The notes under the pieces: model-generated
What the model saw: only the letters and a program-made list of their open reading frames with translations
What the model was told of the DNA's origin: nothing
The model's database searches: none
IMG/VR virus record: IMGVR_UViG_2744054872_000005
Origin: a virus
Taxonomy: Duplodnaviria; Heunggongvirae; Uroviricota; Caudoviricetes
Reading direction: 5' to 3' (one strand)
DNA length: 60,920 nt
Made by a program: the position numbers and the translations under genes
In this document: one piece after another, positions 20,584-38,193 of the stretch
Layout: every line of letters begins with the position of its first letter
How positions within the stretch are numbered: position 1 is the stretch's first letter

Positions 20584-21903
20584 TTACACTGGTGTGTTCA
20601 GCAAATCGTTAACGGCATCAGATGACGGGTTACCTGCAGCCAGCGGTGCCGGTGCCCCCTGCATCAGACGATCCAGCGCAGTGTCACTGCGCGCCTGTGC
20701 ACTCTGTGGTGCAGCTGCCAGAATGCGGCGGGCCGTTTCCACGGTCATACCGGGGGGTTCGGCCAGCACGCGTGCCTGTTCTTCGCGTCCGTGAGCCTCC
20801 TCACAGTTGAGGATCCCCATAATGCGGCTGTTTTCTGCCGCAACCGCTGCGGTGATCTGCGCGTTCACATCCGGCTGCGCCGCGCTGGCGTTTTTGCCCT
20901 CCGTCGCTTGCACCACGCCAGTAACGTCAGCCTGCGAAGCAGTGGCTGAAACAGTTGTTGATTGAGTCTCTTTGGTCATTCGCCCTCCTGAGAGACGGGA
21001 TTTACGTGTATCCAGTGCATCACGCATGACGGTGATCGCATCGGTACTGTTAACAAGTTCATCAGCCAGTCCGGCATCAATGGCCTCCTGACCGCTGTAC
21101 ACTGCAGCCTCGGTATCCAGCACAGCCTGCACGGACAGGCCGGTATATGCCGATACCTTCTGTGCAAACATCCGGCGAGTTGCATCCATCCGGGACTGCA
21201 GTGTTTCCCGGACATCATCCGGTAGATGGCTGTAGGGGTTGCCATCCACCTTATGGCTGCCGCTGTAAATCAGCGTGATTTCCACGCCCTGTTTCTCCAG
21301 CGCAGCGCCGTAATTACTGTGAGCCATCATGACGCCGATGGAGCCTGTCCGGGCGGTCTGCGTGACCAGACGCCGGGAGGCGGCACTGGCAAGCAGCTGA
21401 CCTGCACTGCAGTTCATGTCGTTGGCCAGCGCCCATACCGGTTTTATGTCACGCACACGGGCGATGATGTCAGCGCAGTCAAATGCCCCCGCCACCATCC
21501 CGCCGGGCGTGTCCATATCGAGCAGAATGCCGTCCACCATCGGATCGCTGGCAGCCTGTTGCAGACGGGCGATAATGCCGTTGTAACCGGTCATCCCCGA
21601 ATGCGGCTGCAGCGCCCGCGTCCGGTTGACCAGCGTGCCGGAAACCGGCAGCACGGCGATGCCGTTCATGACCTGATAACTGCGGGCCTGTCGTGGTCCG
21701 TCATCATCACCGGATAACGCCAGCGTCGCGGGTGTCTCCGGGGCAGTCAGGCTGTCACCGGACACCGCATCTGTCAGGCGGCTGATCCCAAGCTGGCCTG
21801 CTAGCGCACAAAAGAAAACCCGCGCATAGGCGGGTTCAAGCATCAGCGGCTCATTAAAGGCCATGCTGGCAATATGCGGGAGATTACGCAGCTCTGCTGT
21901 CAC
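20584..21903 (-). CDS. C: capsid assembly protease C (with nested scaffold Nu3)
   Basis: 439 codons from a GTG start (VTAELRNLPHIASMAFNE); 20-nt overlap with the end of B as in lambda. Confidence 0.9.
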   Translation of the reverse strand: MTAELRNLPHIASMAFNEPLMLEPAYARVFFCALAGQLGISRLTDAVSGDSLTAPETPATLALSGDDDGPRQARSYQVMNGIAVLPVSGTLVNRTRALQPHSGMTGYNGIIARLQQAASDPMVDGILLDMDTPGGMVAGAFDCADIIARVRDIKPVWALANDMNCSAGQLLASAASRRLVTQTARTGSIGVMMAHSNYGAALEKQGVEITLIYSGSHKVDGNPYSHLPDDVRETLQSRMDATRRMFAQKVSAYTGLSVQAVLDTEAAVYSGQEAIDAGLADELVNSTDAITVMRDALDTRKSRLSGGRMTKETQSTTVSATASQADVTGVVQATEGKNASAAQPDVNAQITAAVAAENSRIMGILNCEEAHGREEQARVLAEPPGMTVETARRILAAAPQSAQARSDTALDRLMQGAPAPLAAGNPSSDAVNDLLNTPV

Positions 21904-22663
21904 TCTTCTCCTCCTCTGTTGATTGTCGCAGCCCGGATTCAAATGCCGCAGCCGCCCAGGCTGGCGGTTTAAGACCGGCTGCGCGGCGCTCCATCGTTTC
22001 ACGGACCTGCTGGGCAAAAATTTCCTGATAGTCGTCGCCGCGTTTTGCGCACTCTTTCTCATAGGTGCTCAGTCCGGCTTCTATCAGCATCACCGCTTCC
22101 TGTACTTCTTTCAGACCATCGATGGCCATACGACCGGAGCCTATCCAGTCACAGTTCCCCCAGGCACTGCGGGCTTCCTGAAAACTGAAGCGTGCTTTTG
22201 AAGGTAACGTCACCACGCGGCGAGCGATGGCCTCTTCCAGCCAGCACAGAAACATCTGGCTCGCCTGACGGGATGCGACGAATTTTCGCCGCCCCATAAA
22301 GTACGCCCACGACTCGTTCGCACTGGCCCGTGCCGTGGAGTAGCTCATCTGGGCGTAATTCCGGGAAAGCTGCTCATACGAGACACCCAGCCCGGCAGCG
22401 ATATACCGCAACAGTGACTGCTCAAACACGGAGTAGCCGTTATCCGTGTCCTGAGCCGTCTGCAGGTTCAGTGAGTCCCCCGGCATCAGGTGCGGCACTT
22501 TTGCGCCTCCCAGACGGACCGGTGCTGCGGCGTAATACGCGGCAATTTCACCAATCCAGCCGGTCAGCTTGTCCCGCTGCTCCTTACTGTTCGCGCCCAG
22601 AATAAAATCCATCGCTGACTGCGTATCCAGCTCACTCTCAATGGTGGCGGCATACATCGCCTT
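21884..22663 (-). pseudogene. B: portal protein B, 3' fragment (about residues 292-533), separated from its 5' part by the island
   Basis: Encodes ...KAMYAATIESELD... through the lambda gpB C-terminus; upstream of codon K the sequence is unrelated island DNA. Confidence 0.9.
22656..22663. repeat. left copy of 8-bp direct repeat ATCGCCTT (island attL core or target duplication)
   Basis: Identical octamer at 33480-33487; removing the island and one copy rebuilds an uninterrupted gpB reading frame ...SAIVKAMYAAT.... Confidence 0.85.
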
Positions 22664-22736
22664 TATGAAAAGACAGGAAAAAATAAAATTTAAAAACAGT
22701 ACATTACGAATGCTCAGACCTATCGTTTAAAGGAGT

Positions 22737-22758
22737 CGCAATACACACTGCAATACAC
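22737..22758 (+). repeat. two direct copies of GCAATACAC (candidate integrase arm-type sites, attL side)
   Basis: tcGCAATACACacTGCAATACACg; same motif three times at 33298-33350. Confidence 0.6.
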
Positions 22759-23694
22759 GATTATTTATAAGATGAGCGGCATCCGTCATAAAGCTGGTGG
22801 ATGCTTTTTCTATGCATATATGCACAGTTTTAGTGGGCGTTAATGTCGATATAGGGATCCCCATATCGAGATTGGATACCTGGCTTTTTTCCGGTTAACC
22901 TTTAATCAGGCTGGTGGGCTTTACCTGTTTTGTATGAGTGGTCATCATGACCATGTCATAACAAAAACCCCATATTCGTGGTTTTTCTGTGTCGGGGCTA
23001 TTCTGCTGTTGCCGTGCTGGTGGATATTCTCCGGTATGCGACTCCCCATATCGGCATCAGGCCCACCAGCGTGAAGCGTTTTTCATTTTTCGCGGGTATA
23101 AAAAATCGATGGGGCTGGCAGTCCGGAAGACGTCAGGTCACAGGGATTTGACCCGCCCCTCCCTGTGCATGAGCACAATAAGTAACCGAAGGCGGAATTC
23201 CGCCCTCGGTACTCACATATGAGAAACGATATTTCTTCCACAGATACCCTTTATTTGGGTATCGCGAGTAAGCCCCAAAATCTGGGTGTTACTCTTACTA
23301 CCCAAACTACGGGTAGTTTCCGTAGTTTCATGGTCGAGTTGCAGATCTGCAACTCACCCACCCGCCAACCCATTTTTGGGCCGTCGGGAATATCAACAAG
23401 TTAGCACAGAAATAACTCAGGCAGATACAAAACTCAACTTTGAGCTTTGCTTATTATTCAGTTGGTTAACATCCCTCAAAACTGAGGACTGTACCCAAAG
23501 CTATTTTTATAGCTCCGGCCTCAGCCGTTGGCTGTTCCCGAAAATATCAGTCAGTTACGTTAACCGCTAATTTCTGCCTTTGGTGTGAATACTGTCGCTT
23601 TAACCTACGGTAATTGTTCTGCCTCGGTGCGTGTCACCGCCGTAACCGCGCCAGTAAACCCCACAGATTCGTGGTTTTCCTGAATATCAGGAAT

Positions 23695-23979
23695 CTACCG
23701 CCGCAACCGTTCCGGTTTCTTCCACTGGTAAGTATTTTTCGCGCTCTCCCTCCGTTGTTGAGAACGGCGACGGTATGCCAGCAACTCAAGGACTCTGATC
23801 CGTATGTCGCGCATATCCACGCCGTTAAGCTCGATACCGTCACGGCGCATCATCTCAGCCACCACACGCGCGTAATTTTCGGCTATCACGCTGTCCGGCT
23901 GCGTGGCCTCCTGTTTGCTTGATGGTTGTTTGATTCCGGTAACGCGGCGGATTAATCCCAGCAATTCAGATTCTGTCAT
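23695..23979 (-). CDS. hypothetical protein (94 aa), last gene of island, 11 nt downstream of the TerS-like gene
   Basis: Charged, helical-looking ORF tightly coupled to the TerS-like gene; no recognisable domain. Confidence 0.45.
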   Translation of the reverse strand: MTESELLGLIRRVTGIKQPSSKQEATQPDSVIAENYARVVAEMMRRDGIELNGVDMRDIRIRVLELLAYRRRSQQRRESAKNTYQWKKPERLRR

Positions 23980-23990
23980 AGTGCGCTACG

Positions 23991-24542
23991 TTACTTGTCT
24001 TTATTCGGCTGCAACTTATCCGGCACATTTCCGGTAGTTTCCATCAGGTAATCAGCCAGTATCTGCGGGAGGTTGTCGTCAACTCCGGCACTGGCATTAC
24101 AGGCTTTAGCCACTTCCTTTTTAAGTCCATCCAGCATAGCCGGAGTCATCTGTGGGAAGCGCCTTTGCATGGTAAGCGGCAGGCTGTCCATGATAGATGA
24201 AATCTGACTCGCCAGTTTGGAAAGAACATACATACAAAACTCTGTATCAATAACGTCGCCGCGTTCGCGCTCGTTTTTAAGCTCCTGCGCTTCTGCCTGT
24301 GCTGTCAGTAATCTGATCCTGACGCGTAAAAGTTCATCGTCATCAATATCGCCCGTTTCGTTTGTAATCTGGCTAATTGCATTGTTAACCCGATTATCTA
24401 TTACACTGGCAACATCATAGAATGCCTCACGGCCCTTACGCTCGACGGGAATCACTCCCCACTTATCAAACGCAGTGGCGCTTACACGGCAACTTTTTGC
24501 CATGTTTTTTTTGTTCATCAGGTGCAATTTCATTGATACCAC
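23991..24542 (-). CDS. small terminase subunit homologue (lambda Nu1-like) encoded by the island
   Basis: 183 aa; C-terminal region aligns by eye with lambda Nu1 (e.g. LTAQAEAQELKNERERGDVIDTEFCMYVLSKLASQISSIMDSLPLTMQRRFP vs LTRAQADAQELKNARDSAEVVETAFCTFVLSRIAGEIASILDGIPLSVQRRFP); N-terminal wHTH region is divergent. Confidence 0.8.
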   Translation of the reverse strand: MVSMKLHLMNKKNMAKSCRVSATAFDKWGVIPVERKGREAFYDVASVIDNRVNNAISQITNETGDIDDDELLRVRIRLLTAQAEAQELKNERERGDVIDTEFCMYVLSKLASQISSIMDSLPLTMQRRFPQMTPAMLDGLKKEVAKACNASAGVDDNLPQILADYLMETTGNVPDKLQPNKDK

Positions 24543-24644
24543 AACTTAATTACTGTTTCAGGTTGGTGTATTGATTGTATTTTTCTCTTCTTATTCATAG
24601 AGATAGAGCGAACAACAAAACCACCACCAGCACCCGAAAAAGGC

Positions 24645-24710
24645 TCATAAATAGCGAAAACCCGCGAGGTCGCCGCCCCGTAACCTGTCGGATCGCCGGA
24701 AAGGACCCGC
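24645..24710 (-). other. island cos site: 66-bp exact copy of helper cosN and flanking sequence (cosN GGGCGGCGACCT at 24667-24678, minus strand)
   Basis: Identical to 37110-37175; sequence toward the island TerS gene (cosB side) is unrelated to the helper cosB. Confidence 0.85.
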
Positions 24711-24734
24711 CAGCCAGAACGGGCCCTAATTTCA

Positions 24735-25118
24735 TCAACCAATCAACTTATAGCGACCATCCCGTGCATTGCGACGTACACGCTCAATCTTGAGGCATAG
24801 CGCCGCACCTGGCTTTTTTGGGACAGGTACGCGGCAATATTCAGAAGCGCGAGGAATATTATTTATCCAGTCGATCACTTCACTTAAATACCAGGCCTTA
24901 CGCCCTTCCGTAACCTGCACTCGCTCCGGGAACTCTCCACTAGCCTCAAGGTTTAGCAGTGTACGCCGACTCAGGGTTGTAATTTCCATCACCTGATTCA
25001 TATCAACAAGGCGCTCGCTTAAACACATTTTGTCAGCGATAGCTTTTAATTCCTCTACAGCTGGATTCGGGTACATCATTTCGGCAATTGGCTTAAGGTC
25101 ATTGTAATCATTCTGCAT
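24735..25118 (-). CDS. AlpA-family HTH protein (second copy, 127 aa) in the island morphogenesis module
   Basis: C-terminal MEITTLSRRTLLNLEASGEFPERVQVTEGRKAWYLSEVIDWI resembles the AlpA/phage regulatory HTH. Confidence 0.55.
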   Translation of the reverse strand: MQNDYNDLKPIAEMMYPNPAVEELKAIADKMCLSERLVDMNQVMEITTLSRRTLLNLEASGEFPERVQVTEGRKAWYLSEVIDWINNIPRASEYCRVPVPKKPGAALCLKIERVRRNARDGRYKLIG

Positions 25119-25129
25119 TGTATCCCCCT

Positions 25130-25459
25130 TTACACACGAGCCAGCGGCTGAACAGAAATACCTGAGCCAACAAACGCTGCAACCTTTACTGACAGTTCTT
25201 TAACAGACTCAGGCCAGTTCAGAGCATCAACATTTAAGACACCTGTCTTATAGACCTGAGCCTGTGTTTTTTTCGCGGTGTCGATTTGTACAGCGGAAAC
25301 ATAAACCGCTTTACCTACGCTCGAACCATCCCATACCACCAGTGCACCATGCATCAGTGGCGTAAATGCAGGAATTACCCCTTTATTAGCTGAAAATATC
25401 CCCAACGTAGTAACCAGTGCTTCAGTGCCAGCCATGAGTTCAGTGTAATGAGTAGCCAT
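25130..25459 (-). CDS. head decoration protein homologue (lambda gpD-like), island-encoded
   Basis: 109 aa; shares TPLM, VWDG and C-terminal AF.G..IS motifs with gpD. Confidence 0.7.
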   Translation of the reverse strand: MATHYTELMAGTEALVTTLGIFSANKGVIPAFTPLMHGALVVWDGSSVGKAVYVSAVQIDTAKKTQAQVYKTGVLNVDALNWPESVKELSVKVAAFVGSGISVQPLARV

Positions 25460-25468
25460 TGCTCCCCC

Positions 25469-26515
25469 TTAACCAATGCGAACGGTAACAAAACGATTGA
25501 TGCGGGCCGGTATTGGCTGTGGTGCAGAGTGCGTTTGTACGTACTCAATAGCCGGATCTCCAGGCACAATGTAGTTTTTCGGTGCGAGTTCGGCTTTAGT
25601 CAGCCCCATTCGGATTAGCTCCGGATCCTGAATACCGCCATAAGCGACAATCCCCTGAAGAGCCGTATTGCCAAGCACCATCAAATCAGGATCAAGGAAA
25701 TGTTTTTCAGTTCCGTCCTCGTCGGTATAACGCCCGCTGTATACAACAATCGCAACATCGCCCATATACCCTTTAAAACTCACCGAATCACCAAGGTCTT
25801 TAAGGGCCGTTTCCAGTTCGGAATTAGAACCACGGCGGGTATCCAGAGCCTCTTTTATCGCTCTGAATGAACGGTATTTCTTCCATACATTACCGCCCAT
25901 AATGATGATATTAGTGACGCCCTCACTAAATTCTGCGTAGCTCTCAATATCATCATTTGGATCAAAAGTTTCTTTATCCTTACCTGACCACTCAGCACCG
26001 CCAGACTGAGTGATGATATTTTGTGGTTTAATATTCCAGTCCAGTTCATAACGTTCAATACCATCGCCTTCAATGATATTTTTCCCCGTTGTGATTGCCT
26101 GAACAGCAAGCCATTCAATACGTGCACGTATAGCTTTAGCCTGATTTACAATCGCCTGTTTAACTTTAATATTACGCGCCCCAAAAGCATTGTATTGTTC
26201 AGGTGATACACCAGCAGGGCGCACAGCTAACTTATTTGGATCAATGCTGCTTTTCGGTTTCATATAGCCAGGGCGAATTGTTTTTGATTCGTATCCCTCA
26301 TCTCGTGAAACTTTACTGCCCACCATAGGAGAGCAAAACGCCGCGATCGGGATATTTGGATCGTCGATCGTATCAAGAATAATGTCTCTCGATTCAAACA
26401 TTACCGAGCGAGTGAAAAACAAACTGGTAAACAACGCATTTAATTTTTTTTGCACATCTTCAGCATTAGCCACCTGCACAAGCTGTGTAGGCGAATATAA
26501 ATCAACCATACTCAT
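25469..26515 (-). CDS. major capsid protein homologue (lambda gpE-like), island-encoded
   Basis: Clear collinear similarity to gpE (TQSGGAEWSGKDKETFDPNDDIESYA, ...AIKEALDTRRGSNSELETALKDLGDSVSFKGYMGDVAIVVYSG); start chosen at MSMVDLYSPTQL with AAGAGG RBS. Confidence 0.85.
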   Translation of the reverse strand: MSMVDLYSPTQLVQVANAEDVQKKLNALFTSLFFTRSVMFESRDIILDTIDDPNIPIAAFCSPMVGSKVSRDEGYESKTIRPGYMKPKSSIDPNKLAVRPAGVSPEQYNAFGARNIKVKQAIVNQAKAIRARIEWLAVQAITTGKNIIEGDGIERYELDWNIKPQNIITQSGGAEWSGKDKETFDPNDDIESYAEFSEGVTNIIIMGGNVWKKYRSFRAIKEALDTRRGSNSELETALKDLGDSVSFKGYMGDVAIVVYSGRYTDEDGTEKHFLDPDLMVLGNTALQGIVAYGGIQDPELIRMGLTKAELAPKNYIVPGDPAIEYVQTHSAPQPIPARINRFVTVRIG

Positions 26516-26726
26516 CCTCTTTACATTCATTACAAATAATTGTGAATATATTCTATTACCGATGTCTGCTATGCGAATACATGCAACCAAGTGCAATGTT
26601 GTATAAAATCTGCCGTGACAACTTCAGTGCTGATAATTCGTGTTAATGTATTTACTTCCTTTGGTCGGGATTTATGTAGCATGCCGGAAAATCTATTTTC
26701 TTCCGGCATTTTTTTATTTGCAGAAT

Positions 26727-27149
26727 TTAAAACGGTATATTATCGCCGTACGGATCATCATTCCCCGACTGTTGTTTTGCCCTGTTCAGTGCGTCAGTAG
26801 CCTGGCCCTGTTGACCTTTTTTGCCGCCCGGTCGCGCCGTTCTGGCACTGATTACACTGTCTGCGATAACCTGCCAGCACTGCCGCGTTTCGCCGTTCTG
26901 GCCTGTCCACTGGCTTACCTGCATGTTACCCGCCACGCTCACCAGTTCGCCTTTGTGGTGTTTTGCCAGTGCGTCGGCCTGTCTGCCAAACGCCAGGACG
27001 GATAACCACATCGTCGCCGTTCCGTCATCTGCCTGGCTGCACGGAAGTGGGACCGCCATACTCGCCATCGTCATTTGTGTACCCTTGCTGGTGGTCTTTA
27101 ACTGCGGGTCAGCCACCAGCCGCCCGTAAGCCGCTATCTGTGCTGTCAT
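26727..27149 (-). CDS. ssb: single-stranded DNA-binding protein (SSB-like)
   Basis: OB-fold-like N-terminus, Gly/Gln-rich linker and acidic C-terminal tail ending DNIPF (compare SSB DDDIPF). Confidence 0.55.
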   Translation of the reverse strand: MTAQIAAYGRLVADPQLKTTSKGTQMTMASMAVPLPCSQADDGTATMWLSVLAFGRQADALAKHHKGELVSVAGNMQVSQWTGQNGETRQCWQVIADSVISARTARPGGKKGQQGQATDALNRAKQQSGNDDPYGDNIPF

Positions 27150-27391
27150 GCTGTCTGCTCTCCGGTTTTAACGTTGATGGTTGTCACCTGTTCCGCTTCG
27201 GCAATCTCCCGTTCTGTCAGCGTGGCAAAGTTTGCAGCTGCCGTTGTCATGAATGCGCTAATCAGTTCGGGATGTGCTTTCGCATATCCTTCCCCGGCGT
27301 TGCGGTCGATGATTTTTATCGACACCCTTAACCAGTGTTCCGTCAAATCAAGGGCGTGCGATTGTGATTTTTTTGTGTGCTTCGCTGTCAT
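27146..27391 (-). CDS. hypothetical protein (81 aa)
   Basis: ORF between the iteron region and ssb with overlapping stop/start. Confidence 0.4.
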   Translation of the reverse strand: MTAKHTKKSQSHALDLTEHWLRVSIKIIDRNAGEGYAKAHPELISAFMTTAAANFATLTEREIAEAEQVTTINVKTGEQTA

Positions 27392-27442
27392 AGGCTTTAT
27401 CTCACAGCAGTAAATTAAAATTTTTGCGTTTTAACCCTTCAC

Positions 27443-27664
27443 CTGTTCACCTTTTGATATTTTATCTTTTAATTCATAATGTTAAGGGGTGAACAGTTTC
27501 ACAAAAACTATTCACCAACTGTTCACCACTGTTCACCCTTGAAGCTCAATAAACAATCAAAAAGGTGAACAGTGAATAGTTTGGTGAACAGTTCATAAAT
27601 AACTGTTCACCCTATAACATACTGATACAAAAGATATTTATGACAGGGTGAACAGTGGTGAACA
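27443..27664. repeat. iteron cluster: at least 9 copies of GGTGAACAG / CTGTTCACC in both orientations (candidate island replication origin)
   Basis: Copies at about 27443, 27488, 27519, 27529, 27564, 27584, 27603, 27647 and 27656 in an AT-rich stretch just 3' of the primase gene. Confidence 0.75.
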
Positions 27665-27678
27665 GTTATTCCATAAGT

Positions 27679-29511
27679 TTAATTTTTGCTATCGTCATTA
27701 GTGACCGATACACATGATGGCATCCAGTCTTCTGATTCCTCCGTCAGTGTCACGTTTGAACGCAAACCGTGCTTCGTTTTCCGTTTCATATACTCCCTGC
27801 CATATTCCGCCATTGCCCCCGGCATATCTTTACCGAAGCGCGTCAGTGTTACAGGTTTACCAAACCCATGTGCCCTCATATAAGCCAGATAGGCATGATA
27901 GAGATACCTGCGTGGGCTGAATGGCACAATTTCAGCATTACCCACTAACAGGCCATCACACATTACCGACGCCATGAGATAGCCGCAGAAGTCCACCAGC
28001 GAATCCCCCTCTCGCTTTATCGCCAGTGCTTCTTCAGATTTCTGCTGCTCATATAACAGGCGTCTGGCTTCGTCCTGGTCAGCAAACCGTGTAAGCAGAT
28101 GGCGAATCACTACCGCCAGCTCACCTTCTATTTTTTCCGCCAGCATTGGATCGCGTTCGTTCTCCGGTACAACTTCCGAAAAATTGAATATCACCCGACG
28201 ACGTGAGATCCCCCCGCTGCGGTCACTGAATGACATGGCGTTATTGTTAACCGCCAGCACTACTGCCGGAATACGCGTTGAGTAGGGGGCTTTGTGTTTC
28301 GGGTCAATTGCCACCTTGTCACCGCCTGTAATAGCCTTAATCCCTGCCCCATCACCAGCGTAGCGGGTCATATCCGGCATGATAATCAGCGAAAAGCCAA
28401 CCACTAACGCGCGTTCCCTTGCATCTTCCAGCGCCTTCATGCTTGCCGATACTGTGTTGGCCTTACCCGCCAGCATGGTGCAAATCTCCGCCATCACGCT
28501 TTTACCACTTCCCCCTGGACCTGTTACCTCAATGAATAACTGCCAGTCGTACCGGTTCGCCAGCACCATGAATAATGCAGCCAGTACGCGATCCGCCTTG
28601 CGGTCATTCTCAGCCACCGAACGGCGTAACCACTTCCAGAAATTCGGCGCATGTGTTGCCAGCGTTTCCCCCTCTGCTGGTGGGCTGAAAGGTAATTCAC
28701 TGGCAATTAACAACCAGTCGTTTTTGTTATGCTCCCGAAAATTACCTGTTCTGGTATCAAATACCCCGTTACTGAATCCAATCAGGTTACGGGCTGTATT
28801 CCCCATAACAGGCAAACTTAACTTCATGGTATCGACCGCCGATTTAATGGCGTTCTGCGAATAGCTGATCTCCGCATCAATGAAAATCTGCGCCATAGCT
28901 CGCTGTAATTCTTTATCCTGTACTGGCTCCCATACAACGCCGTTGTAATGGTGAACAGTGTCAGAGTCAGCATGAATCGCCAGTTCACCGCCATAATGTG
29001 CCAGGAGAACTTCGCCGCGTTGACTTGCTCCCATCTGGTTAAGCGCCAGTGATGAAGCGTTATCGTCTTTTACCCGCTCTTTTTTCTTTACAGGCAGTTC
29101 AACTACCTTTTTCTTTTCCGCCTGCTCTGCCCGTTCACGTTCCAGATATTCGCGCCAGTTCTCCCGTTTCTGGCTGTGCATTCCTTCAGGATAATAATCA
29201 GCATCCCTGACACCTGCCGCTGCCAGTTTCTGCCCGATGGTATTAACAAGCCCCGGACGCAATAACCCCGCCTGATAGAGACGCACGCGATAGCGTCCGT
29301 CCGGTACGATTTGCAGGTTGTCCAGTTCGGCAAGTTGTTGCTCTCCAAGCCAGACAGGTGGCACGTTATCGCCAGCCAGTCGCCCGTCCTGTTCCTGCCA
29401 CTGATTCGCATGTGCCCACGCATCACTACCCGCAAAAATGATGACTTCCGTCATTTTGTCACGCGGCTGGTATTTTAAATTTGGCGCTTTTTTCATTTCT
29501 GCTCTCTCCAC
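27679..29511 (-). CDS. primase/replication initiation protein (P4 alpha or PICI Pri-Rep-like) with P-loop NTPase domain
   Basis: 610 aa; Walker A GPGGSGKS; placement next to int-alpA and directly upstream of the iterons. Confidence 0.75.
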   Translation of the reverse strand: MERAEMKKAPNLKYQPRDKMTEVIIFAGSDAWAHANQWQEQDGRLAGDNVPPVWLGEQQLAELDNLQIVPDGRYRVRLYQAGLLRPGLVNTIGQKLAAAGVRDADYYPEGMHSQKRENWREYLERERAEQAEKKKVVELPVKKKERVKDDNASSLALNQMGASQRGEVLLAHYGGELAIHADSDTVHHYNGVVWEPVQDKELQRAMAQIFIDAEISYSQNAIKSAVDTMKLSLPVMGNTARNLIGFSNGVFDTRTGNFREHNKNDWLLIASELPFSPPAEGETLATHAPNFWKWLRRSVAENDRKADRVLAALFMVLANRYDWQLFIEVTGPGGSGKSVMAEICTMLAGKANTVSASMKALEDARERALVVGFSLIIMPDMTRYAGDGAGIKAITGGDKVAIDPKHKAPYSTRIPAVVLAVNNNAMSFSDRSGGISRRRVIFNFSEVVPENERDPMLAEKIEGELAVVIRHLLTRFADQDEARRLLYEQQKSEEALAIKREGDSLVDFCGYLMASVMCDGLLVGNAEIVPFSPRRYLYHAYLAYMRAHGFGKPVTLTRFGKDMPGAMAEYGREYMKRKTKHGLRSNVTLTEESEDWMPSCVSVTNDDSKN

Positions 29512-29792
29512 GCGGCAATCATATTTTTCAGTTCCTGTAGTTTTTTATCCACATCCACACGTGACACATGGTTATTTCTGGAAGTCGGGATTTTCCGCCG
29601 GAATCTGCAAATAAAGATCTCCACGTTCAGCGAACTAAGAAATGAATAGCCATCACGGATAAAATACACACGGTCAAACATCAGTTCTTTTACCGTTACT
29701 CTGTTACCGTTCTTATCCAGATAAATAGCGCCGGGGATAATTTGGGGGTGTGCATAACCGCTGGCAGTCAAGCCAGATAAATACGTTCTCAT
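29493..29792 (-). CDS. hypothetical protein (99 aa)
   Basis: Overlaps primase start by 19 nt; no recognisable domain. Confidence 0.45.
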   Translation of the reverse strand: MRTYLSGLTASGYAHPQIIPGAIYLDKNGNRVTVKELMFDRVYFIRDGYSFLSSLNVEIFICRFRRKIPTSRNNHVSRVDVDKKLQELKNMIAAWREQK

Positions 29793-29798
29793 GATTAT

Positions 29799-30119
29799 TT
29801 ATCCCCGATTTGAATCAGTATTCGCTTTCTTTATAGCATTTAATGCATCTGTGGCATTTTCAATGGTGCACCGTAACGAAATATCAAAATGTCCAAGCAT
29901 TGCCAGTAACAAACCGATATTACCCATATCAATGCGCATGGCCTTTTCGTCATATTCCTCATTTTCTGACGCATGCCACATCAGGCTACCAATTGACGCA
30001 ACAGCCATTGATATATTGTCAGTAGCCCCATCCGCAGCGGAATAAACCTTTTTAGCAATATCATGCTCACAGTTAAAATGCGGATTAATCAGGTACTGGT
30101 AATTTGACATATCAGGCAT
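29799..30119 (-). CDS. hypothetical protein (about 106 aa from MPDMSNYQ)
   Basis: Internal ATG at 30119 has AGGGGG 8 nt upstream; the listed ORF extends upstream to 30236 through the operator region. Confidence 0.4.
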   Translation of the reverse strand: MPDMSNYQYLINPHFNCEHDIAKKVYSAADGATDNISMAVASIGSLMWHASENEEYDEKAMRIDMGNIGLLLAMLGHFDISLRCTIENATDALNAIKKANTDSNRG

Positions 30120-30404
30120 GGCACACCCCCTGGCGAATACGGGCGGCGAATACAGCAACACAACCGGACGGGCAGCGGTTACGCGCTTCACGTTCCGTCC
30201 AGGCGGTGACGTGGATGATTTGAGATTCTCCGGCACTCAGTGCCAGAAAACGCCACACAAAGGCCGTTTGTGTGTGTACAAGGTGTGGGGTATGCTGTCT
30301 TACAGCCATAATCGTTACTCCAGTTAACGGTTTGGTTAGAAGCCCCGTTACTGCTCCAACAGTGCGGGGCTTCGTCGTTTCAATTGCTGAATTGCATGTA
30401 TCAG

Positions 30405-30475
30405 CCCTTGTGGTATTCAGATTACATTTTGGTGAATACCATTTCAAGTCTTTTTTGGTATTCACTTTTGTATTA
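30405..30475. promoter_or_regulatory. divergent promoter/operator region with three GGTATTCA / TGAATACC repeats
   Basis: tggtattcag, tggtgaatacc and tggtattcac between the divergent replication operon and the DUF3950-like gene. Confidence 0.55.
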
Positions 30476-30508
30476 CACTGCATCCCGTTATTAATCGGAG
30501 GTGCAAAC

Positions 30509-30814
30509 ATGTCCACGAGTTCTGTTAACAATAAATCACAGCAACTGAATGCCAGATTTCCACATGAAGTAGTGAGTGGCATTGAGGCATCCCTACAGCC
30601 AGGGGAAACTAAAGCGAATTTTATAGTTACGGCTGTACGCGGTGAGATCGCCAGCCGCCAAGCAGAAGGCAGCGGAGAAAATCCCCTTGTGTCGTCACTG
30701 GATGCCCTGGCTAAGGTCGAACAAATCGGCATCAAAGCCGCCGAGGAGATCGGGCAACTCATCACCGTCGCGCGTGAAGAACTCCAGCGACGCAAGGTCA
30801 AAGAGCATGAATAG
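30509..30814 (+). CDS. DUF3950/YlcI-like putative DNA-binding protein (101 aa), candidate island regulator
   Basis: GGAGGTG RBS; N-terminus MSTSSVNNKSQQLNARFPHEVVSGIEASLQPGETKANF aligns with the helper YlcI MSTKNRTRRTTTRNIRFPNPMIEQINIALDQKGSGNF. Confidence 0.55.
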   Translation: MSTSSVNNKSQQLNARFPHEVVSGIEASLQPGETKANFIVTAVRGEIASRQAEGSGENPLVSSLDALAKVEQIGIKAAEEIGQLITVAREELQRRKVKEHE

Positions 30815-30871
30815 CCAATATCAGCGCCATAGTTTGAGGAACGCAGGCGCATTGCTTTACAGGACAGCACC

Positions 30872-31051
30872 ATGAGCGACACAGAATCAACCAAAACACC
30901 ATCACCAACTCGTAAGAGACGACGCAAAAATATAGCGCATGAACATGAATCAGAAAGATTCGCACCTTGTTCGTTTGCTCTTGAGAAATTCCTTAAAGAG
31001 CACAGGAAAAAGCTCTCGTTGCAAACCTTGGAACGAACCAAATCTGACTGA
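30872..31051 (+). CDS. hypothetical small basic protein (59 aa)
   Basis: ORF downstream of the DUF3950-like gene, followed by two terminator hairpins; below the 60-aa cut-off of the ORF track. Confidence 0.3.
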   Translation: MSDTESTKTPSPTRKRRRKNIAHEHESERFAPCSFALEKFLKEHRKKLSLQTLERTKSD

Positions 31052-31118
31052 TCACATTGCCCACCAGCCGCAAATGTGGCATTGTTGGTGATGCGTTCAA
31101 GTTTAGTGTGTATCCATT

Positions 31119-31148
31119 GGCGACCGCCCCCGGTCGCCTTTGTTTTGT
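31119..31148 (+). terminator. rho-independent terminator (first of two)
   Basis: ggcgaccg-ccccc-ggtcgcc followed by tttgttttg. Confidence 0.6.
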
Positions 31149-31724
31149 CACTGAATGCGGTTACCAAAGTAAAACTCAGGCTGATATTCACGTATCAGCC
31201 TTTTTTCTTCTTCCTCCAGCTCACGCTTTTTGCGCTTACATGCCTGTAGCTCCCTCCCCTTCTCGCTGGCACTTATTTGATATTGCTCTTTACGGCGGGA
31301 AAAATCCTGTAATGCACCCCACGGGATACCATAAGCCCCCGTTTTTCTGATACCTGGTATCACATTTCTGAATACCCAGTTACTGAAACGATGGGCGAAC
31401 GTGCCAGGAGTAACAGCTTTCCGACTTCTGGCGATTAGTTTGTAGAACCCTGACTCGCATACCGTTCGCATTGTTTGATTTCCACCTGGGGTGGGTATTA
31501 CACTCCCCCTTTTCATCATCATCGAGACGGCGTAACGCAACCTTGTGATCAACAATTTCCAGCGCAGCGCACACGTCAACGGCAACAAACCACGGATCGC
31601 CGTTCACATACACCACGCGAACGCTCACACCATCAAAGCGCAGAACGACCAGATCACGAATATCACAGAATTTTTTCACTGGACGAGCGTACCCCTTGCC
31701 CGTCACGGCAATATTTTTATTCAT
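31148..31724 (-). pseudogene. Bro-N domain (antirepressor-like) gene interrupted by a +1 frameshift in a G5/C5 run
   Basis: ORFs 31380-31724 and 31148-31588 together read ...PWFVAVDVCAALE...DDDEKG // SVIPTPGGNQTMRTVCESGFYKLI...NVIPGIRKTGAY; frame change at ccccc 31504-31508. Confidence 0.65.
31178..31207 (+). terminator. rho-independent terminator (second of two)
   Basis: aggctgata-ttcacg-tatcagcct followed by ttttttt. Confidence 0.6.
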
Positions 31725-31778
31725 CGCGTTTTACCCTATAGACAAAAACCCCTCGTGATGAGGGGCGTTATTTACTGG

Positions 31779-32036
31779 TTATTGCTGTGTTGTTTTTCCA
31801 GGTTTCCATCCAGGATGCCACTCACCACGGATCCATGCCTGAACCTCTGAAAGTCGATACCCTGCAGCACGTTCACCGATCTTGATACGTCGCGGGAATT
31901 TACCTGCCTGCTCCATTTTCCAGCGTGTTGAGTTTGCCAGCGTGGTAAGTGCTATGCACTCTTTTTCACGAATGAACCGATCAATGTCCTTCATTGTGCG
32001 CAAATCGTTTTCATCAACAAGAGAATAAATTGCCAT
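31779..32036 (-). CDS. alpA: AlpA-family transcriptional regulator/excisionase
   Basis: 85 aa HTH ...GKFPRRIKIGERAAGYRLSEVQAWI; immediately downstream of int. Confidence 0.8.
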   Translation of the reverse strand: MAIYSLVDENDLRTMKDIDRFIREKECIALTTLANSTRWKMEQAGKFPRRIKIGERAAGYRLSEVQAWIRGEWHPGWKPGKTTQQ

Positions 32037-32037
32037 A

Positions 32038-33279
32038 TCACACCACCTCTTTATTAAGCTCGATAACGTTGTTGTTAAATCCTGCTATCGTATTAAGGTA
32101 ATTAACCCACATATTAAGCACCTCAAGTTTTTTCTTTATATGCCTGCTTTTATTGTAAACACCAGCAACCCCTTTCACTTTATGACCTAAAAGAAGTTCG
32201 ACAATATAAGGATCCGCCCCCATATCATTAAGCGTAGTGGAAAATGTGCGCCTGAAATCATGTATGCACCACAAGCCATTAGTATCATGACCAAGACGCC
32301 TGCATATTCTGTTTGCAGCCCCTGTTATTGTCGCCCTTTGCAAAGCACAACCGACAACATAACCGCGATTTTTTGTTTCTGCGTAAAGATTAACGATCCA
32401 TTGTTTTATTCCGTCAGGAACAGGCCTTACTATAGCCTCCTTGTTTTTGCTGTGCTCTTTTGGGACTGTCCATACCCAGTTTTTTAAATCCCATTCGTCC
32501 CAGGTGGATAGCCTCGCCTCCTGCTGTCGGCAACCAAACACCAGGCAGATAACCATTATTCTTCGGTTATATATTGATGACAGAGTTAGCAAATTATTAC
32601 CGTAAGCATAAGACCATACATCAGCGGTTTCATTGATATTAAGAACGCGATCCCTTATACCGGATGAGCGCCCGACATAACTTACGTTAATATCTCCAAA
32701 GGGATCGCACGCGATGTATTGCCTGACGCGACAAAAACGCAACGCCTGTTTGATATCAAGAAAAATTGCACCAGACATAACAGGCGCATTTTTTTTGATC
32801 CTGTCAAAGACGGTAAGCCATGTGTGTAATTTGCACTGTTCTATAGCCATATCACCGATATAGGGGAAGATATGCTTTTCAAATCGTTTTATTAAATATT
32901 CATGCTCTTTTCTGGCTGTTGTGGCGTGATTATCGTACCAGTAAAACAGCGCATCCCTTACGGTCACTGGTTGCATGGTTTTTTCGGCAGCAAGTTTTAT
33001 TTGCCTGCGTGGGTCCAGATTTTCAGCCAGCCATTCACGGCACTGATCACGCATGCGCCTGGCTGTTGCAAGAGACATATCAGGATAGCGCCCAAGTGTA
33101 AGCCATACCGGAGGGGATTCCCTGCCACCAAGACGATAGTAAAAAACAAAGCTGATCCCCCCAACCATGCTTACACGCACAGACAACCCGCGCCCATCCG
33201 CTATTGTTTTTTGTTTGTCCTGCCGTTTTCCGACAAGACTCTTTAACAGTTTGTCACTGAGTTTGTTTTCAATAGCCAT
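32038..33279 (-). CDS. int: tyrosine integrase (P4-type)
   Basis: 413 aa; N-terminal arm-binding-type domain and C-terminal catalytic region (HDFRRTF...LLGHK...Y); adjacent to the island right junction. Confidence 0.9.
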   Translation of the reverse strand: MAIENKLSDKLLKSLVGKRQDKQKTIADGRGLSVRVSMVGGISFVFYYRLGGRESPPVWLTLGRYPDMSLATARRMRDQCREWLAENLDPRRQIKLAAEKTMQPVTVRDALFYWYDNHATTARKEHEYLIKRFEKHIFPYIGDMAIEQCKLHTWLTVFDRIKKNAPVMSGAIFLDIKQALRFCRVRQYIACDPFGDINVSYVGRSSGIRDRVLNINETADVWSYAYGNNLLTLSSIYNRRIMVICLVFGCRQQEARLSTWDEWDLKNWVWTVPKEHSKNKEAIVRPVPDGIKQWIVNLYAETKNRGYVVGCALQRATITGAANRICRRLGHDTNGLWCIHDFRRTFSTTLNDMGADPYIVELLLGHKVKGVAGVYNKSRHIKKKLEVLNMWVNYLNTIAGFNNNVIELNKEVV

Positions 33280-33297
33280 TAAAAGCCCTCAAGAGAT

Positions 33298-33350
33298 TTG
33301 CAATACACACCCATCCCGATCGCCAATTTGCAATACACATTGCAATACAC
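33298..33350 (+). repeat. three direct copies of TGCAATACAC (candidate arm-type sites, int side)
   Basis: tTGCAATACACac ... tTGCAATACACat-TGCAATACACaa, between int and the junction. Confidence 0.6.
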
Positions 33351-33479
33351 AAAACCGCGAAAAACTGGAAGAGTGATGAACGGTCATCAAAAGTATGGAA
33401 AACGACATTCCAGACGCAGCAAGGGTTTCAGTGGAGTTGGCGAACGATGCGGGCAACTACGGTGAGATGATAGACATAA

Positions 33480-36408
<2,929 letters not shown>

Positions 36409-36434
<26 letters not shown>

Positions 36435-36954
36435 TCAGCAACCCCGGTATCAGTTCATCCAGCGCGGCTGCTTTGTTCATGGCTTTGATGATATCCCGTT
36501 TCAGGAAATCAACATGTCGGTTTTCCAGTTCCGGAAAACGCCGCTGCACCGACAGGGGGATCCCGTCGAGAATACTGGCAATTTCACCTGCGATCCGCGA
36601 CAGCACGAAAGTACAGAATGCGGTTTCCACCACTTCAGCGGAGTCTCTGGCATTTTTTAGCTCCTGTGCGTCGGCCTGCGCACGCGTAAGTCGATGGCGT
36701 TCGTACTCAATAGTCCCTGGCTGGAGATCTGTCTCGCTGGCCTGCAGCAGTTCTTCAACTTCCCGGCGCAGCTTTTCGTTCTCAATTTCAGCATCCCTTT
36801 CGGCATACCATTTTATGACGGCGGCAGAATCATAAAGCACCTCATTACCCTTGCCACCGCCTCGCAGAACGGGCATTCCCTGCTCCTGCCAGTTCTGAAT
36901 GGTACGGATGCTCGCGCCGAAAATGTCAGCCAGCTGCTTTTTGTTGACTTCCAT
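36409..36954 (-). CDS. Nu1: terminase small subunit Nu1
   Basis: 181 aa, MEVNKKQLADIFGASIRTIQNWQEQGMPV... as lambda Nu1. Confidence 0.97.
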
Positions 36955-37109
36955 TGTTCATTCCACGGACAAAAACAGAGAAAGGAAACGACAGAGGCCA
37001 AAAAACCCGTTTTCAGCATCTGTCGTTTCCTTTCTTTTCAGGTGGTGTTTTAAATAAAAACATTAAGTTACGGCGAAGAAGAACGGAAACGCCTTAAACC
37101 GGAAAATTT

Positions 37110-37175
37110 TCATAAATAGCGAAAACCCGCGAGGTCGCCGCCCCGTAACCTGTCGGATCGCCGGAAAGGACCCGC
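37110..37175 (-). other. helper prophage cos region (cosN GGGCGGCGACCT at 37132-37143, minus strand), cosB toward Nu1
   Basis: Matches the lambda cohesive-end sequence and flanks by recall; 178 nt upstream of Nu1. Confidence 0.9.
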
Positions 37176-37342
37176 AAAATGATAATAATTATCATCTACA
37201 TGTCACAACGTGCATCTACGCCATCAAACCACGTCAAATAATCAATTATGACGCAGGTATCGTATTAATTGATCTGCATCAACTTAACGTAAAAACAACT
37301 TCAGACAATACAAATCAGTGACACTGAATACAGGGCAACCTC

Positions 37343-37537
37343 ATGTCAACGAAGAACAGAACCCGCAGAACAACAACCCGCAACATCCGCTTTCCTAACC
37401 CAATGATTGAACAAATTAACATCGCTCTTGATCAAAAAGGGTCTGGGAATTTCTCAGCCTGGGTCATTGAAGCCTGCCGTCGGAGACTAACGTCAGAAAA
37501 GAGAGCATATACATCAATCCAAAGTGATGATGAATAA
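37343..37537 (+). CDS. ylcI: DUF3950 family protein (YlcI-like)
   Basis: 64 aa MSTKNRTRRTTTRNIRFPNPMIEQINIALDQKGSGNFSAWVIEACRRRL, as in DLP12/lambdoid ylcI by recall. Confidence 0.7.
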   Translation: MSTKNRTRRTTTRNIRFPNPMIEQINIALDQKGSGNFSAWVIEACRRRLTSEKRAYTSIQSDDE

Positions 37538-37899
37538 ACATCCCGGTTTCTTCCACCATCGCACCGGAAAAGCAACTATGAGGGTAACCCTGCGTCTGTC
37601 AGCACAGTAAAACCCGGTGTGCATCGTTTTTGATTATTCCCGCACACTCACGCAGAAGGAATTCCCCGTCGGGCTACGGTCATGGTTCATGCGGGAATAC
37701 GGCGACGATACAGCGCAGCTAAAAGGGTAATAGACAGAAAGAGCGGTTTATTTCATTCCACAGGATTCTGAGTGTCCCCAACTTCCTCCAATAGTCTGAG
37801 CGTACACCTATATAGTTTTAATTTTCATCAATCCATTTAACTATCGTTTAATTGTTGTCACATAGGATTCCGCCGTTTTTAACAATGCAGGATAATAAG

Positions 37900-38193
37900 A
37901 TGAAAAAAATGTTGTTTTCTGCCGCTCTGGCAATGCTTATTACAGGATGTGCTCAACAGACGTTTACTGTTGGAAACAAACCGACAGCAGTAACACCAAA
38001 GGAAACCATCACCCATCACTTCTTCGTTTCGGGAATTGGACAGGAGAAAACTGTTGATGCAGCCAAAATTTGTGGCGGCGCAGAAAATGTTGTTAAAACA
38101 GAAACCCAGCAAACATTCGTAAATGGATTGCTCGGTTTTATTACTTTAGGCATTTATACTCCGCTGGAAGCGCGTGTGTATTGCTCACAATAA
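37900..38193 (+). CDS. bor: Bor lipoprotein (serum-resistance associated)
   Basis: MKKMLFSAALAMLITGCAQQ lipoprotein signal; lambda Bor-like; opposite strand to Rz as in lambda. Confidence 0.9.
   Translation: MKKMLFSAALAMLITGCAQQTFTVGNKPTAVTPKETITHHFFVSGIGQEKTVDAAKICGGAENVVKTETQQTFVNGLLGFITLGIYTPLEARVYCSQ

Follow-up and report, generated by a model that had tools for sequence, protein, structure and literature searches.

The ylcI-like gene located at positions 30509 to 30814 (plus strand) of the window, that is, of the whole 60,920-bp stretch of DNA analysed here, codes for a 101-aa protein that is probably a sequence-specific repressor of the Arc/Mnt-like ribbon-helix-helix (RHH) type, silencing the replication operon of a phage satellite and regulating its own expression. 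A preliminary description of this DNA had proposed for the region a master repressor with a set of operators, comparable to Stl. The core of that idea and the Stl-like placement were supported on comparative grounds, by a conserved operator scaffold and by the co-variation of operators and protein, but the family had to be corrected, the predicted fold being RHH and not helix-turn-helix. The layout is that of a master repressor: ylcI is divergent from the replication module (the icd-like/primase operon), and the operators lie over promoters. Four rival explanations were weighed, and even taken together they are unlikely.

The window corresponds to a lambda-like prophage with its late genes on the minus strand (Nu1, 36954-36409; A, 36434-34509; and W). 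Its portal gene is present in two pieces: an N-terminal one at 34309-33428, matching positions 3-242 of the Pfam Phage_portal_2 profile, and a C-terminal one at 22657-21884, matching positions 238-354. An island of about 10.8 kb sits between these halves and contains, in this order, int, alpA, a frameshifted Bro-N gene, the ylcI/operator region, an icd-like gene, a 106-aa ORF, a DUF4222 gene, genes for a D5-type primase and SSB, homologues of capsid E and head-decoration genes, an AlpA-like gene and, at its end, its own cos and a Nu1-like gene. Since the portal gene is split and int, alpA, and a D5-type primase gene lie between its halves, the island is a helper-embedded PICI (HE-PICI) inside the helper portal gene; its position is the integration site B:Phage_portal_2:241, already published for HE-PICIs (PMC10111431). 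The icd-like gene (30112-30309, minus strand; 65 aa; NF033153, 64.6 bits) is the first one of the operon placed under the operators, and its 3' end overlaps the next gene, whose ATG is at 30119. The 127-aa AlpA-like gene adjoining the island cos matched an AlpA-family structure only, and not Rpp. In a megablast search of complete E. coli genomes, a 1.1-kb query region from the window matched E. coli SCEC020022 at 100%.

The start codon of ylcI is preceded by a GGAGG Shine-Dalgarno sequence (30497-30501), 7 nt 5' of the ATG. The likeness noticed earlier between the N-terminus of its product and that of a YlcI-like protein of the helper prophage was corroborated by BLASTP, which aligned the first 51 residues with 27% identity (pairwise E=6e-4), and by profile searches, in which both proteins scored above the cut-off of NCBIfam NF041551 (YlcI_YnfO_N; 56.8 bits for the island protein and 33.1 bits for the helper protein, with a cut-off of 30) and both matched phrog_949 (2.2e-19 and 1.6e-34, respectively). 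An identical gene in RefSeq is annotated as coding for a YlcI/YnfO family protein. The proposed DUF3950 membership did not stand for the island protein, which gave no match to Pfam PF13132 at E<=0.1, whereas the helper protein matched this model (30 residues; gathering score of 25 bits) with 5.5e-20 and 71.4 bits. At the level of sequence, it is by NCBIfam and PHROG, not by Pfam DUF3950, that the island protein is placed in the family.

The fold had been regarded as a DUF3950 fold of unknown function; it is now predicted to be RHH, with an N-terminal strand and two helices forming a domain at about residues 11-52. All structure models were of single chains. The full-length model contained helices at residues 19-28, 35-52, and 59-100, and fold searches with it were uninformative, returning coiled coils only. 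For a natural homologue of 58 aa, the model obtained was confident (pLDDT 83.8). Comparison with Arc by hhalign (P=9e-4, probability 22% over 22 residues) aligned QLNARFPHEVV of the island protein with QFNLRWPREVL, covering the strand and the first helix; comparison with Mnt gave a probability of 1.5%. Pfam contained no RHH family match for the island protein, and sequence and profile searches of the PDB returned no significant match and no RHH protein. In RHH proteins, paired N-terminal strands read the DNA major groove, which fits residues 11-17 of YlcI as the variable segment that defines its classes (see below). The helix at residues 59-100 is probably a coiled coil for oligomerisation; it is absent from natural short forms of 58-60 aa (EcCICFT073, L004, and P0097).

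The opposite strand carries a stop-free frame of 359 codons (30112-31191, minus strand) that lies antisense to a downstream ORF (orf59) and to ylcI, continues over the entire intergenic region, and terminates as icd. The intergenic region (about 195 nt) is free of stops in the icd frame in 14 out of 20 loci, and the other two minus-strand frames contain 1-8 stops each across it, typically 4-8; over ylcI, one antisense frame is always open. This raises the question of whether the ylcI ORF might be a by-product, the real product being a long minus-strand Bro/Eta-Icd fusion protein. The length of the frame and its being open in most loci speak for such a protein, as does the annotation by gene callers, in L020 and L021, of minus-strand ORFs of 428-495 aa with a Bro-N domain. 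However, the ylcI frame is under protein selection: amino acid identity was higher in the sense than in the antisense frame in 66 out of 66 pairs, and conservative replacements were found in the sense frame only. Moreover, the sense family also occurs in phages, and the antisense frame of the helper copy extends over only 47 aa (37432-37575), with none complete. The Shine-Dalgarno sequence before ylcI is strong, and the antisense translation is of low complexity, rich in Ser, Cys, and Leu. The two readings do not exclude each other either, for the frame may stay open merely for translation. On this balance, the by-product explanation is extremely improbable.

The putative operators were identified as copies of the repeat TGGTATTCA/TGAATACCA. 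The three copies reported previously were found to be exactly the ones present in the 60,920-bp window, where about 0.5 would be expected, and all of them lie within 54 bp. Operator O1 (30411-30419, plus strand) abuts the -10 element of the leftward promoter and covers its inferred start site, O2 (30433-30441, minus strand) lies within the 17-bp spacer of the same promoter, and O3 (30456-30464, plus strand) lies in the spacer region of the rightward ylcI promoter; each of them reads TGGTATTCA on the indicated strand. A fourth position, O4 (about 30478-30486), is degenerate in the window island and intact in its relatives. The inferred leftward promoter of the icd-like/primase operon (30419-30447, minus strand) consists of a -35 element TTGAAA (30447-30442), a 17-bp spacer, and a -10 element TAATCT (30424-30419). 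It is weaker than those of its relatives, with eight of 12 consensus matches, and was not called by the promoter scan; in L001 (TTGACA-17-TAAAGT) and L002 (TTGACG-17-TAACAT), the homologous sites were the sole promoter-like hits of the scan. The inferred -10 element of the rightward ylcI promoter (30474-30479, plus strand), deduced from the locus alignment, is TACACT here and TATACT or TATAAT in relatives. The scan did not report this promoter, and its -35 element is weak, T-rich, and not convincing.

Based on this arrangement, we infer that YlcI dimers, probably joined into higher oligomers through the C-terminal helix, would bind to the TGGTATTCA sites, which are about 22 bp (two helical turns) apart and alternate in orientation. 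Since O2 lies in its spacer and O1 at its -10 element and start site, the leftward promoter would be shut by the bound protein, and the replication operon (icd-like gene, DUF4222 gene, primase, and SSB) would be repressed. The location of O3, and of O4 in the relatives, over the promoter of ylcI itself would result in autoregulation. Further GAATAC elements (30135 and 30148), considered earlier as half-sites, had to be removed from the operator set, since they lie inside the icd-like coding sequence, where they encode a conserved VFAARIR motif, and recur unchanged in islands with quite different operators. From their sequence context, they are a coding by-product.

Parts of the 1.1-kb region were detected by megablast in 1,444 of the 5,426 complete E. 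coli genomes, and the matches were repeatedly annotated as a YlcI/YnfO gene beside an Icd-like gene. About 19 further control regions plus that of EcCICFT073 were compared, coming from E. coli, Enterobacter, Yersinia, Photorhabdus, Xenorhabdus, Phytobacter, and a metagenome. When aligned on the ylcI start codon, all collected loci revealed a single scaffold, with four sites at about -98, -76, -54, and -31 from the ATG, a spacing of about 22 bp and mostly alternating orientations. Its first half is formed by O1, the complement of a TAAnnT -10 element, and O2 within a 17-bp spacer; the complement of a TTGAC/A -35 element, CTTT, and O3 follow in the middle; and the last part comprises TTGTGTAT directly followed by ACT (a TATACT-type -10 element), O4, and the Shine-Dalgarno sequence. 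Of the 19 loci arranged in this way, 17 had the scaffold conserved; the other two did not match the anchor pattern of the script, but they showed the same layout. In the RefSeq record of EcCICFT073, int, alpA, icd, and primase share one strand, and a 59-aa YlcI/YnfO gene (C_RS30120) and a 57-aa ORF lie on the other. The gene was located between alpA and icd in all the PICIs examined.

While the scaffold is constant, the operator core varies in about a dozen classes that track residues 11-17 of YlcI. Proteins with QQ[LI]NAR in this segment (QLNARFP at residues 11-17 of the window protein) are associated with the core TGAAT[AC][CG]CA in the window, Yersinia, Phytobacter, and a metagenome; QLTTVRV with TGAAACACAC in E. 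coli and in five Photorhabdus/Xenorhabdus species; QSLTARI with TGTAAG[CA] in E. coli and Enterobacter soli; and QALKARV with GGTGTGGCCCAC in EcCICFT073. KQISIRI, QMTTVRI, QMTTLRV, QQIGARF, QVKNVRI, and QMKNIRF have a core of their own each. The mean number of cross-matching sites was 2.98 for pairs of loci with strands at most one residue apart, against 0.38 for other pairs. Members of the QLTTVRV class have invariant operators, separated by DNA that is variable.

A possible alternative was that the repeats are bound by some other factor (AlpA, Icd/Ash, Bro, or the primase, with the repeats as iterons) and that YlcI has an unrelated role. In its favor, repeats near replication genes can be iterons, and AlpA is a known activator of PICIs. 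However, Icd is 88-97% identical among L001, L002, L003, L004, and CFT073, yet these islands carry five operator classes; the window island and that of Yersinia L021 share operators at an Icd identity of 34%; and L001 and L002 have an identical AlpA-like protein (WP_001206975.1) and different operators. Between the window and L001, icd differs as well as the operators. As far as these comparisons go, the operator class follows the N-terminal strand of YlcI and is independent of Icd and AlpA. In addition, the sites overlap promoter hexamers, and in these islands the replication origin is reportedly located 3' of the replication genes (PMC6092414). Binding by another factor is thus quite improbable. 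Since operators and N-terminal codons lie within about 150 bp, they may recombine as a single module, and such linkage could account for part of the co-variation with YlcI. Not all the loci are independent, and the argument for YlcI is based on about a dozen independent classes and on the fact that the swapped block (30150-30640) holds no other plausible DNA-binding determinant. With YlcI as the repressor, residues 11-17 would set the specificity, and the family would have split into about a dozen pairs of repressor and operator, comparable to the immunity types of phages.

ylcI had been described as the only plus-strand gene of the island, which turned out not to be the case: a conserved, basic 59-aa ORF, orf59 (30872-31051, plus strand; phrog_21027, 5e-15), lies between ylcI and the terminators and is co-transcribed with ylcI. 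Its homologue in EcCICFT073 is C_RS30800. The two plus-strand terminators noted after ylcI were recovered at 31119-31138 and 31178-31201, each with a T tail, but they lie beyond orf59; in the terminator scan, these two intrinsic terminators (31119-31211) end the ylcI-orf59 transcript. As an alternative, ylcI and orf59 might form an addiction module or a toxin-antitoxin pair of type II, in which an RHH antitoxin autoregulates through the repeats and the vicinity of the replication genes is incidental. Nevertheless, two of the sites belong to the opposite promoter, that of icd and primase, one falling within its spacer and one at its start; natural short forms of YlcI (58-60 aa) are devoid of a C-terminal toxin-binding part; and 57 nt separate ylcI from orf59. 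Besides, orf59 is swapped for unrelated ORFs in some loci (L016), is unannotated in L001 and L003, and showed no match in Pfam, NCBIfam, or PADLOC. No recognisable toxin family was found next to ylcI, and PADLOC returned no match. Therefore, a toxin-antitoxin module appears improbable.

A conserved GC-rich hairpin with a T-rich tail is located at 30339-30381 (stem 30339-30373; plus strand), antisense to the icd leader. In 19 out of 20 distinct loci the plus-strand version is the more stable one (mean ddG, -6.4 kcal/mol); it commonly contains G-U pairs (1-4 per locus), whereas the minus-strand version rarely does (none in 15 out of 20). From this strand stability and G-U pair bias, the hairpin is most likely an intrinsic terminator working in plus-strand RNA. 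A -10-like element, TATGCT, is present at 30291-30296, and both N-terminal families of icd have TATGCT or TATGAT immediately to the left of the icd start. This element and the terminator suggest a cis-antisense RNA of about 75-80 nt against icd. Orf59, the stop-free antisense frame, and this plus-strand terminator before the operators had been overlooked in the preliminary description.

The helper prophage carries its own ylcI gene (37343-37537, plus strand; 64 aa), which is situated 200 bp from the helper cosN (37132-37143) and is divergent from Nu1. The same YlcI-cos arrangement is found in many lambdoid phages, such as 434, and 167 phage records matched the helper stretch. Regulatory cross-talk between helper and island had been suggested from this paralogy, and no support for it was found. 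The recognition strands differ, TRNIRFP in the helper versus QLNARFP in the island, and the 9-mer of the island operators is absent from the helper. The region upstream of the helper ylcI lacks the four-site scaffold, its best match (seven of nine positions, TGAATACAG) being at chance level, and contains other inverted repeats at 37179-37195 and 37241-37273.

The proximity of the helper gene to cosN in so many phages, together with the assignment of the helper and island proteins to the same phrog_949, would be compatible with a packaging or cos role for the family, the island copy redirecting or modulating the terminase in an Rpp-like manner. Against this, the island cosN (24667-24678) is 5.8 kb away from ylcI and has its own Nu1-like gene, and the gene keeps its position between alpA and icd in all the PICIs examined. 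Furthermore, Rpp has a TerS-like DNA-binding domain, whereas YlcI is predicted to be RHH, and YlcI showed no sequence match to solved structures, although the structures of Rpp have been reported as solved. A cos-related role is consequently very improbable. Rpp itself was considered as an identity for the island protein and was excluded by the missing PDB match, the predicted RHH fold, and the distance of 5.8 kb to the island cos.

With YlcI as a repressor, and judging from its predicted fold, the closest mechanistic relatives would be Mnt and Arc of P22 and the omega repressor, and not Stl, which has a helix-turn-helix domain. In the immI region of P22, repressor gene and controlled operon are transcribed divergently, with operators over both promoters, and a short antisense RNA, sar, covers the ribosome binding site of a gene in the controlled operon; the plus-strand terminator at 30339-30381 may mirror this arrangement. 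The predicted helix 59-100 of YlcI resembles in position the tetramerisation helix of Mnt, whose C-terminal coiled-coil tetramerisation domain corresponds to PDB 1qey. On the other hand, Mnt and Arc show no significant overall sequence similarity to YlcI. In P22, there is one operator of 17-21 bp per protein, there are two repressor genes, and the operon encodes an antirepressor; the satellite has four sites at 22-bp spacing, a single repressor gene, and an operon for an icd-like protein and replication proteins. Omega (pSM19035, inc18) binds contiguous heptads instead of sites of 9-11 bp that are 22 bp apart; it is a regulator of plasmid copy number and partition, without a C-terminal coiled coil.

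Stl of SaPIs and Rpr of Gram-positive PICIs share position and logic with YlcI, being divergent repressors that keep the island silent until the helper acts (PMC6092414). They are inactivated in a way unlike classical phage repressors, being relieved on binding a helper protein; in the islands with YlcI, relief through AlpA or late read-through would be more likely. As for the YlcI proteins of phages, YlcI (DLP12) and YnfO (Qin), of DUF3950, share the homologous N-terminal domain (NF041551, phrog_949), but they are of about 60-64 aa and lie beside cos, while the island protein has an additional helix of 50 residues and its gene is accompanied by a four-operator scaffold, which is missing from the helper copy.

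In satellite P4 (PLL-vis-eta; PLE-CI RNA-kil-alpha), the immunity region occupies the same place, between the alpA/vis homologue and the operon of kil (or icd-like gene) and primase. P4 has a long frame, eta, that extends over both its early promoter and its immunity determinant before terminating as kil; when eta is translated, late transcripts can read through (bioRxiv 10.1101/2022.07.18.500453). The stop-free frame of the islands with YlcI (359 codons in the window; 14 out of 20 loci) matches eta in this respect. P4 immunity is due to CI RNA, which causes termination, whereas the satellite has a gene for a protein repressor antisense inside the frame; a search of Rfam gave no match to CI/C4/isrK-type RNA, nor to any other RNA family, at E<=1 in the region 22000-38000.

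As to derepression, about which we are less certain, the route we infer starts with transcription of int and alpA being made terminator-resistant by AlpA or, as an alternative in this embedded island, with helper late transcription entering through the portal gene. An intrinsic terminator was detected by the terminator scan directly 3' of alpA (alpA, 31779-32036; terminator, 31748-31766; both on the minus strand). This location would suit a terminator-bypass role of AlpA, by analogy with the AlpA of P. aeruginosa, which has been shown to have such a role (PMC7969949 and PMC9371919). The read-through would run antisense across orf59, ylcI, and the operators into the replication operon, and the stop-free frame would let ribosomes follow it, as for eta in P4. 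In this way, the replication genes would be expressed regardless of the repressor, and transcription of ylcI would be interfered with.

In the founding paper on Gram-negative PICIs, transcription was described as running in one direction. All non-hypothetical genes of HE-PICIs were likewise reported as unidirectional (PMC10111431), and a 2026 survey lists a "YlcI/YnfO, prophage-associated protein" in two cf-PICIs, without comment. In the literature searched, subscription journals lying outside it, no paper was found that assigns a repressor role to DUF3950/YlcI/YnfO or to an RHH protein of PICIs. The published work on EcCICFT073 reports no phenotype pointing to a repressor, and the gene was apparently not considered there. 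Switches made of an RHH repressor and its operators are already known; here one would occupy a place where the searched literature names no repressor. A broader proposal, which we put forward tentatively, is that YlcI/YnfO proteins would be the missing immunity repressors of Gram-negative PICIs, including EcCICFT073, with about a dozen or more interchangeable specificities; that ylcI would be encoded antisense in a deliberately stop-free, Eta-like frame; that translated, helper-triggered read-through from alpA or late transcription would flip the switch; that the cis-antisense RNA ending at 30381 would also silence icd; and that this would be the first function for the DUF3950/YlcI/YnfO genes of K-12.

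A repressor/operator module of this kind would add a layer of control to these satellites. It is present in EcCICFT073 (C_RS30120), and it could explain why replication is silent without a helper. Together with the open frame and the antisense terminator, it points to several regulatory layers packed in 700 bp. The matched repressor/operator classes suggest immunity-like incompatibility groups among satellites, and they would offer orthogonal small repressor parts. Finally, DNA binding by an RHH domain is a testable function for YlcI/YnfO/DUF3950 proteins, including the products of two uncharacterised E. coli K-12 genes, and it would extend to the conserved gene that lambdoid phages such as 434 carry beside cos.

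The entire island (window 22657-33428) is a helper-embedded PICI that splits portal gene B of the lambda-like prophage near position 241 of the Pfam Phage_portal_2 model, and the two portal halves lie on either side of it (21884-22657 and 33428-34309). This integration site has been described before (PMC10111431). The island carries its own cos on the minus strand (24620-24740; cosN 24667-24678), flanked by genes for a Nu1-like small terminase (23991-24542) and a 127-aa AlpA-like protein (24735-25118). It shares an identical cosQ and cosN with the helper (37132-37143 region), but the two sequences diverge directly past 'ctatttatga', so that the cosB sites differ.

Within the divergent control region, the segment 30291-30381 (plus strand) carries a -10-like TATGCT followed by a conserved hairpin that ends in a T-rich tail. 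This hairpin was stable on the plus strand in 19 of 20 loci, G-U pairs being common on that strand and rare on the minus strand. The segment is a candidate source of an RNA of about 75-80 nt, antisense to the ribosome-binding site and start codon of the icd-like gene; no match to it was found in Rfam. A stop-free frame of 359 codons was also detected on the minus strand (30112-31191). It passes antisense through orf59 and ylcI, crosses the promoters and operators, and terminates as the icd-like gene, an arrangement similar to that of eta/kil in satellite P4. Its translation is of low complexity, and the frame is kept open in 14 of the 20 loci (the window, L001, L003-L005, L008, L010-L013, L020, L021, L023, and EcCICFT073).

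Downstream of ylcI lies the conserved orf59 (30872-31051, plus strand), encoding a basic 59-aa protein of phrog_21027 that had no match in Pfam, NCBIfam, or PADLOC. The Bro-N gene on the minus strand is split into two overlapping frames (31148-31724); the break is located near a G-run at about 31505, and the split gene is likely a frameshift pseudogene or the result of a sequencing error. Right behind the alpA stop codon there is a strong intrinsic terminator (31748-31766, minus strand), consistent with AlpA working via terminator bypass.

The stretch upstream of the helper ylcI, between cosN and the gene (37144-37342, plus strand), contains two elements that may be the sites of helper YlcI itself: the 17-bp palindrome ATGATAATAATTATCAT at 37179-37195 and an inverted repeat of 13 bp (37241-37253 / 37261-37273). 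Phage 434 is among the 167 phage records that contain this same cos-adjacent ylcI gene.

In EcCICFT073 (L025; NC_004431.1 1380242-1381052), the YlcI/YnfO (C_RS30120), 57-aa (C_RS30800, counterpart of orf59), and Icd-like (C_RS30125) genes bear out-of-series locus tags, which suggests that they come from a later re-annotation. Their later addition may be the reason why this island was called unidirectional. Finally, at the position that ylcI occupies in other PICIs, the E. coli PICI L003 (NZ_CP072802.1) has a gene for a phage-type (DUF3950-like) YlcI of 60 aa, and the four-site operator scaffold is replaced by two copies of a 12-bp palindrome, TGGTACGTACCA (L003:1800-1862). Because of this combination, L003 is a link between the phage and island YlcI subfamilies.
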